The notes under the pieces: generated by a model | Databases searched by the model: none | Told to the model about the DNA's origin: nothing | Seen by the model: the letters and a program-made list of their open reading frames with translations, nothing else | Translations under genes and position numbers: made by a program | Origin: a virus | Taxonomy: Duplodnaviria; Heunggongvirae; Uroviricota; Caudoviricetes | Direction: 5' to 3' (one strand) | IMG/VR virus record: IMGVR_UViG_2740892272_000003 | Length of the DNA stretch: 7,570 nt | In this document: positions 6,911 through 6,960 of the stretch, piece after piece | Layout of the letters: each line of letters starts with the position of its first letter | How positions within the stretch are numbered: the first letter of the stretch is position 1

Positions 6911-6915
6911 CATGC

Positions 6916-6921
6916 TTGACA
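6916..6921 (+). promoter_or_regulatory. Right-end -35 hexamer (TTGACA); with the left-end TATAAT (5507-5512) it would form a junction promoter in the circular IS intermediate
   Basis: A perfect TTGACA lies 5 bp after the transposase stop, and a perfect TATAAT lies at the inferred left end. Outward -35 and inward -10 halves are a known feature of IS110/IS1111-family circle junctions. Confidence 0.35.
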
Positions 6922-6960
6922 ACTTAATAGGGGCACCCCCCCGACAGACCTGTGCTATCG

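Follow-up and report, generated by a model that had tools for sequence, protein, structure and literature searches.

A predicted promoter split between the ends of ISEc20, an IS110-family element inserted in poly-C runs

The right end of the IS110-family element ISEc20 carries a TTGACA hexamer that very probably supplies one half, the −35 box, of a promoter that exists only once the two element ends are joined. We propose, with a probability of about 0.7, that its partner is TACTTT in the left end and that this split TTGACA/TACTTT promoter would be fired from the joint of an excised circle. The element was analyzed in a 7,570-nt stretch of DNA (the window). A first-pass annotation of the window had already suggested a promoter divided between the two ends of the element; the concept and the −35 box are retained here, whereas the −10 partner is corrected from TATAAT (5507-5512) to TACTTT. 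Five things were derived from sequence: the ends, the target, the conservation and spacing of the boxes, the RNA structure, and the matches between guides and DNA. The proposed ISEc20 junction promoter would be an instance of a known mechanism in a catalogued but uncharacterised element, and the literature searched gave no description of the ends, target or promoter of ISEc20 or ISBma3, or of poly-C targeting by an IS110 element.

The − strand of the window encodes the late region of a lambdoid prophage (portal, large and small terminase, HNH, Rz, lysozyme and holin), and the + strand carries the IS element. Its assignment to the IS110 family in the first-pass annotation agrees with the two domains of the 398-aa protein, PF01548 (DEDD_Tnp_IS110, E = 6.9e-49, residues 14-168) and PF02371 (Transposase_20, E = 7.1e-22, residues 277-358), and with the RefSeq name ISEc20. 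Among 5,426 complete E. coli genomes, 1,577 carry ISEc20. The closest catalogued relatives are ISBma3 (Burkholderia, ∼80% amino acid identity) and ISSfl4 (Shigella), and the recombinase falls in the clade of IS110 proper. Protein relatives of the ISBma3 type with 73-82% identity were found in Burkholderiales, other Gammaproteobacteria and Microbacteriaceae (loci L032-L103). Their guide segments are invariant and their flanks are poly-C, as in ISEc20. The wide taxon range of the same element type at this level of protein identity suggests a recent and wide horizontal spread.

In the window ISEc20 occupies a poly-C run just upstream of the prophage holin gene; the ATG of this gene, on the − strand, follows the poly-G/C run at a distance of 6-10 nt (regions 5340-5356 and 6937-6997). 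A terminator-like hairpin lies at 6971-6997 on the − strand. Since ISEc20 is located between this hairpin and the lysis cassette, late transcripts have to cross 1.45 kb of antisense IS to reach holin, lysozyme and Rz; prophage lysis may be impaired by the insertion. Another genome (L017) contains this prophage fragment, ISEc20 included, between two IS3-family transposase genes (nt 1-754 and 3034-3597). The N run in front of the element hides no sequence, because L017 joins the same two flanks directly: nt 766-973 of L017 correspond to window 5149-5356 and nt 970-3057 to window 5483-7570, with a 4-nt overlap (CCCC).

To set the element ends we used more than 100 copies and relatives, among them 14 E. 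coli/Shigella copies in different contexts and ∼60 relatives; the contexts compared were an alpha/beta hydrolase gene, cah, dgcE, other prophages and ten further contexts, together with eight Shigella/E. coli copies. Invariant sequence runs from GTTAC (5487) to GGGGCA (6935), 1449 bp, and is bordered by C runs, of 1-8 C at the left end and mostly 6-7 C at the right end. The mobile unit, with the putative donor core AC counted in, is 5487-6936 (1450 bp). GTTAC is complementary to a bridge-RNA segment, GUAAC at 5649-5653, and this complementary segment (GTAACGTGG) is likewise invariant in the 55 aligned relatives. The first-pass annotation had described the ends as imperfect inverted repeats of each other. 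Aligned locally, the left end and the right end in reverse complement reach a best score of 7, as do 178 of 500 shuffles; ISEc20 has no terminal inverted repeats and the claimed match is due to chance. Table 1 lists the features.

Table 1. Positions of ISEc20 and its putative functional parts in the 7,570-nt window.
Feature	Position	Strand	Basis
Class II holin	5131-5346	−	holin ATG at 5346
N run, 126 N, zero-length scaffold gap	5357-5482	.	CCCC on both sides; L017
Left C run, target-derived: left target end plus putative target core CC at 5485-5486	5483-5486	+	flank counts
First bases of left end (right donor), GTTAC	5487-5491	+	invariant in 55 aligned relatives
Proposed −10 box TACTTT, left-end bases 3-8	5489-5494	+	conservation, IS621 likeness
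5′ hairpin of bridge RNA, ACCCC-TTATAAT-GGGGT; A5501 = predicted start	5501-5517	+	hairpin in relatives
Target-binding stem-loop	5526-5592	+	fold, compensatory outer stem, guides match poly-C logo
Left guide loop UACUGCCCCCA of target-binding stem-loop	5543-5553	+	poly-C logo match
Right guide loop CCGGGGGGUGAU of target-binding stem-loop	5566-5577	+	poly-C logo match
Donor-binding stem-loop	5598-5665	+	fold, compensatory changes
Left donor guide UAAUAGGGGUCA of donor-binding stem-loop	5610-5621	+	G/A covariation
Right donor guide GUCUGUAACGUGG of donor-binding stem-loop	5645-5657	+	donor-binding fold
ISEc20 DEDD transposase/recombinase, 398 aa	5714-6910	+	Pfam domains, RefSeq annotation
Outward-facing −35 box TTGACA, overlapping ancestral TGA stop 6917-6919	6916-6921	+	kept in all 40 distinct right ends
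Left donor half-site TAATAGGGGC	6925-6934	+	identical to bridge-RNA left donor guide
Putative donor core AC, final bases of mobile unit	6935-6936	+	flank logos, junctions
Right target, right part of poly-C target	6937-6942	+	logo, empty sites

The 227 nt of non-coding left end that precede the recombinase gene form, when folded, a 5′ hairpin and two stem-loops that contain internal loops. In an alignment of 55 relatives, 97.4% of the stem cells are paired, and compensatory changes affect 19 of the 32 pairs. The structure score was reached by 0 of 500 shuffles, and structures slid by 1-3 columns scored far lower. No bridge-RNA family was matched in Rfam; the sole match was a spurious mir-200 elsewhere in the window. 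The first internal loop has CCCCC on its 5′ side and GGGGGG on its 3′ side, both of which match the poly-C target logo. The second internal loop contains UAAUAGGGG, which equals the right end at 6925-6933, and GUAACGUG, which is complementary to CAC-GTTAC. The left donor guide covaries with the right end at a G/A position: the pairing GGGGC-GGGGC occurs in 10 sequence combinations, GGGAC-GGGAC in 6, and crossed pairings in 0. The two sides of a loop in the IS621 bridge RNA pair with different strands, the 5′ side with the bottom and the 3′ side with the top strand (PMC11208160). The putative internal-loop guides of ISEc20 follow the same logic.

Of 47 relatives, 28 have the start of the 5′ hairpin at left-end base 15, and 45 have it between bases 13 and 17. 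Its stem sequences vary among these relatives (median z −4.0). Because the hairpin is conserved with differing stems, it is probably transcribed, which would place the start site upstream of TATAAT. The first-pass annotation had correctly located TATAAT inside the palindrome ACCCC-TTATAAT-GGGGT (5501-5517). This hexamer is the loop of the 5′ hairpin, and loop sequences are not kept across the family: relatives have GATAAT, TACAAT, GTTATC or GGGTAAGC as loops, or long GC-rich hairpins.

Target logos were built from 76 left flanks and 68 right flanks. All 76 left flanks have C immediately before GTTAC; the next position outward is C in 70, T in 4 and A in 2, followed by C in 75, 69 and 46. On the right, GGGRC is followed by A (63) or C (5), then by C in 66 of 68 flanks, then by five C-rich positions and finally by background composition. 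The logos fit a target of about CC-NC-CCCCC, a core N-C with an invariant second base, and a donor core AC. The predicted circle joint is written as ...ATAGGGGC-AC-GTTAC..., with one C after GGGGCA. Three kinds of junction support a joint of the form GGGGC-AC-GTTAC, namely AC at both junctions (L047 and L102), A-to-C swaps at some right junctions (L012, L023), and GGGGCA-C-GTTAC joints where the insertion adjoins CGTTAC, in mdtA (wild type TTCCGCGTTACC) and in a Cupriavidus locus (L068). The mdtA and Cupriavidus insertions match a "half-match" off-target class described in a recent preprint. Recent preprints also describe single-stranded circles and top-strand transfer. The ISEc20 junctions are asymmetric, the putative target core standing on the left and the donor core on the right, which agrees with top-strand transfer; if the circles are single-stranded, second-strand synthesis would be needed before a junction promoter could work.

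The off-target copies in mdtA are present in E. coli and Shigella (right junction in L029/L031; wild-type mdtA in L111/L112), and the CGTTAC there, as at the Cupriavidus locus, mimics the left end of the element. On its left the mdtA copy is flanked by sequence that does not belong to mdtA, so the insertion was followed by a rearrangement.

We examined the right-end box by count, position and conservation. As the first-pass annotation had noted, a perfect TTGACA faces outward from the element, beginning 5 bp after the TAA stop of the transposase gene (6908-6910). The window contains 2 TTGACA (4.4 expected) and 1 TATAAT (1.45 expected). Neither hexamer is enriched by count, and any significance must therefore rest on position and conservation. 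All 40 distinct right ends have TTGAC[AG], followed by 14 nt (12 right ends) or 15 nt (27 right ends) that end in ATAGGGRCA. In most relatives the stop codon is the TGA inside TTGAC. The ISEc20 stop lies two codons before the TGA of the relatives (6917-6919), yet TTGACA is kept. The codon before TGA ends in T in 51 of 51 relatives and is GCT in 48 of them, whereas GCT makes up only 13% of the Ala codons in the same genes. Since this codon is held against codon usage, the box is conserved as DNA and not only as coding sequence.

At the other end, all 54 distinct left ends begin with GTTAC and have TACTTT, TACTAT or TACCTT at bases 3-8. The common pattern TAC-N-N-T retains three key −10 positions (T, A and the final T). 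Conservation of the two boxes is to be read with the limit that both overlap sequence needed otherwise, the stop codon on the right and the donor half-site GTTAC on the left. When the ends are abutted, TTGACA is followed by 13 nt, AC, GT and TACTTT, a spacer of 17 bp (18 bp if the joint has two C's). Counting one C at the joint, the spacer is 17 or 18 bp in all relatives.

A promoter scan called no sigma-70-type promoter on the + strand of the integrated element, as the first-pass annotation had expected; the host sequence at the −35 position of the integrated TACTTT is unrelated to the consensus. The scan of a tandem joint also called nothing on the + strand, where TACTTT, which agrees with the −10 consensus at no more than 3 of 6 positions, falls short of the 4-of-6 rule of the scan tool. 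A box pair of this kind can be active, as in the E. coli trp promoter (TTGACA-17-TTAACT).

For ISEc20 we infer circle formation, promoter activity and the start site, and the following sequence of events is proposed. Positions 6911-6937 would serve three functions, as −35 box TTGACA, left donor half-site and core AC, and the half-site would be recognized by the bridge RNA of the element. Excision as a circle would abut the ends to give ...TTGACA-ACTTAATAGGGGC-AC-GT-TACTTT-ATTCGT-A.... The joined ends would create a sigma-70 promoter in which a perfect −35 box is followed by a 17-bp spacer made of 13 nt of right end, the 2-nt core and 2 nt of left end. Transcription is predicted to start at A5501, the first base of the hairpin, and the transcript would consist of the bridge RNA (5′ hairpin, target-binding loop and donor-binding loop) followed by the transposase gene. 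Once the element is integrated, poly-C and host DNA lie ahead of the −10 box and poly-C lies behind the −35 box, so that the promoter would be split and the element nearly silent.

The circle joint was found in none of the 5,426 E. coli genomes, metagenome contigs or viral contigs searched; the only IS-IS joints were tandem ones with 3-5 C. Searching the reconstructed joint against complete E. coli genomes gave three full-length matches, all in tandem arrays and reading GGGGCA-CCCC-GTTAC. One joint in a trimer reads GGGGCCCCCGTTAC and lacks the A. Metagenome contigs contained three tandem joints with 3, 3 and 5 C's, and viral contigs contained none. We rejected the tandem joint with 4 C's as a circle joint because of these metagenome counts. 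Such tandem joints are as expected if a second copy inserted into the C run that flanks the first. The head-to-tail arrays of ISEc20 belong to cattle O177 strains, with a dimer on plasmid pO177B1 and a trimer in the SMN197SH3 chromosome (L022, 2101-2136; L023, about 2100-2140 and 3553-3588). In three metagenome contigs (L108, L109 and L110) relatives are present in tandem or the contigs have terminal redundancy.

We compared C counts between occupied and empty sites. Empty sites with a single C run are known for cah (7 C), a dgcE allele (7 C), yfdF (9 C) and the prophage site of the window (6-7 C; L020, L021). The occupied site exceeds the empty one by 2 C at cah, dgcE and yfdF (vs. an expected 1), by 1 or 2 elsewhere, and by 4 or 5 at the site of the window, where records of one insertion vary in run length. 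An excess of 2 C at the joint would mean a spacer of 18 bp, or 19 bp in most relatives; because run lengths vary between records of one insertion, C counting cannot decide between a 17-bp and an 18-bp spacer. The flanking C runs of one insertion differ by 1-3 between records or carry a T (L001/L028, L016/L025, and the window/L026/L027). These differences are either real run instability or homopolymer sequencing errors.

Two sites deserve separate description. Wild-type focB has CCCC-T-CCCCCC (L104/L105) and the occupied alleles (L015/L012) have CCCC and CCCCCC on the two sides of the IS with the T gone, which no simple model fits; strain ETEC1730 has only CCCC at this site and focB is frameshifted. 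At dgcE, the common allele (ACACCCCC) was rejected as the direct target of the observed insertion. The common allele reads AGAACACCCCCAAC (L006/L007 vs. L003/L030), and the insertion lineage has a frameshifted AGACCCCCCCAAC allele. The Shigella dgcE copy has yet another left flank, AG-CCCC.

Besides the junction promoter, TATAAT (5507-5512) could itself act as a −10 box with no −35 partner and give a low constitutive start at ∼5519-5521 when the element is integrated. We consider this unlikely. The product would be a bridge RNA without its 5′ hairpin, plus transposase, and such a start may coexist with the junction promoter. The hexamer is a perfect consensus, relatives of the Burkholderia type have GATAAT or AATAAT at the same place, and basal expression is needed to start excision (PMC13626964). 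However, TATAAT has neither a −35 box nor a TG extension (the hexamer 17 bp upstream is CCCGTT), the promoter scan does not call it, the motif is missing in many relatives, and it lies partly inside a base-paired palindrome. Pairing TATAAT with any −35 box in the left end or flank at 16-18 bp was also considered, and no candidate exists.

It is improbable that TTGAC is conserved for non-transcriptional reasons, as a stop codon and maybe a recombinase contact, with the element expressed by read-through or from an internal start only. The TGA within TTGAC does serve as the stop codon in most relatives, the box is 6 nt from the donor half-site, and IS621 can be expressed and excised via read-through alone (PMC13626964). 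Against these points, the T before TGA and the C[AG] after it are kept in every relative with no coding need, ISEc20 retains TTGACA though its own stop has moved upstream to 6908, the distance to the TA-N3-T hexamer is constant at 17 or 18 bp, and the geometry of IS621 is identical.

The arrangement of the first-pass annotation, an element from ∼5502 to ∼6933 whose circle joins TTGACA to TATAAT with a 17-bp spacer (12 + 5), can be dismissed: both perfect hexamers are present at these positions, but copies in 14 contexts share the sequence from 5487 (GTTAC) through 6935, so that the comparison of multiple copies and empty sites puts the ends elsewhere and both proposed ends fall inside the element; actual IS-IS joints read GGGGCA-C(3-5)-GTTAC; TATAAT is absent as a conserved motif in relatives; and the true distance on the circle is 35-36 bp (14 + 1-2 + 20), at which the two hexamers cannot form one sigma-70 promoter.

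The split TTGACA/TACTTT promoter has its closest parallel in IS621, in which a junction promoter has been documented experimentally (PMC11208160; PMC13626964) and the 5′ end of the bridge RNA was determined by small RNA-seq (Durrant et al., 2024, PMC11208160; Hiraizumi et al., 2024, PMC11208158; PMC13626964). The IS621 right end has TTGCAG and 13 nt, the core is CT, and the left end reads TG-TATTAT-CCCTCC-A, where A is bridge-RNA base 1. Both elements have a DEDD recombinase, a bridge RNA in the left end (5′ hairpin, then target loop, then donor loop), and a promoter divided, as proposed for ISEc20, into a right-end −35 box and a −10 box that occupies left-end bases 3-8. On the predicted ISEc20 joint, both would also share a spacing of 13 nt + 2-nt core + 2 nt = 17 bp and an RNA 5′ end at base 15, and the flank logos suggest for ISEc20, as in IS621, a core with a variable first and an invariant second base. 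They differ in the recombinase (398 aa in ISEc20, in the clade of IS110 proper, vs. 326 aa in IS621), the core (AC/NC vs. CT), the target (a homopolymeric C run vs. REP-type sequence) and the boxes (TTGACA/TACTTT vs. TTGCAG/TATTAT). The right donor guide pairs contiguously in ISEc20, unlike that of IS621. The promoter and RNA 5′ end were measured for IS621 and are predicted for ISEc20.

In two other elements, ISEc21 (IS110 family, E. coli) and ISEc11 (Pjunc, IS1111 family), a circle with abutted ends makes a promoter (PMC11187229), and both circle formation and targeting depend on a non-coding region (Siddiquee et al., 2024, PMC11187229; Prosseda et al., 2006). Unlike ISEc20, ISEc11 possesses subterminal inverted repeats and a guide RNA downstream of the transposase gene. 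ISBma3 and ISSfl4 share with ISEc20 the ends (GTTAC ... ATAGGGGCA), the poly-C flanks and the boxes, and ISSfl4 was grouped with ISEc20 in the table of Durrant et al. (PMC11208160). In the ISBma3 type the right end has 15 nt after the −35 box, compared with 14 in ISEc20, and TACTAT in place of TACTTT.

The analysis sets the true boundaries of the element in the window at 5487-6936, shows that the N gap is empty, and assigns to the bases flagged at first pass a putative triple role as −35 box, donor half-site and core. The promoter geometry of IS621 (13 + 2 + 2, with the RNA start at left-end base 15) appears to be kept in a distant and far more widespread clade that includes IS110, after which the family is named. 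This shared geometry supports the view that silence in the chromosome and expression from the circle are ancestral to IS110 elements. With its poly-C target and invariant guides, ISEc20 would be a natural bridge-RNA system with a very simple and easily recognized target. We suggest tentatively that ISEc20, ISBma3 and their relatives form a bridge-RNA clade whose invariant guides are hard-wired to C/G runs, a single design spread over Enterobacteria, Burkholderiales and Microbacteriaceae at 73-82% protein identity. Runs of a single base tend to change in length, and run lengths here vary among records of one site; if the suggestion is true, the element may preferentially capture rare expanded-run variants or may destabilize host runs. 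The donor site would then also be the spacer of the junction promoter, so that binding of the recombinase-RNA complex could shut the promoter off.
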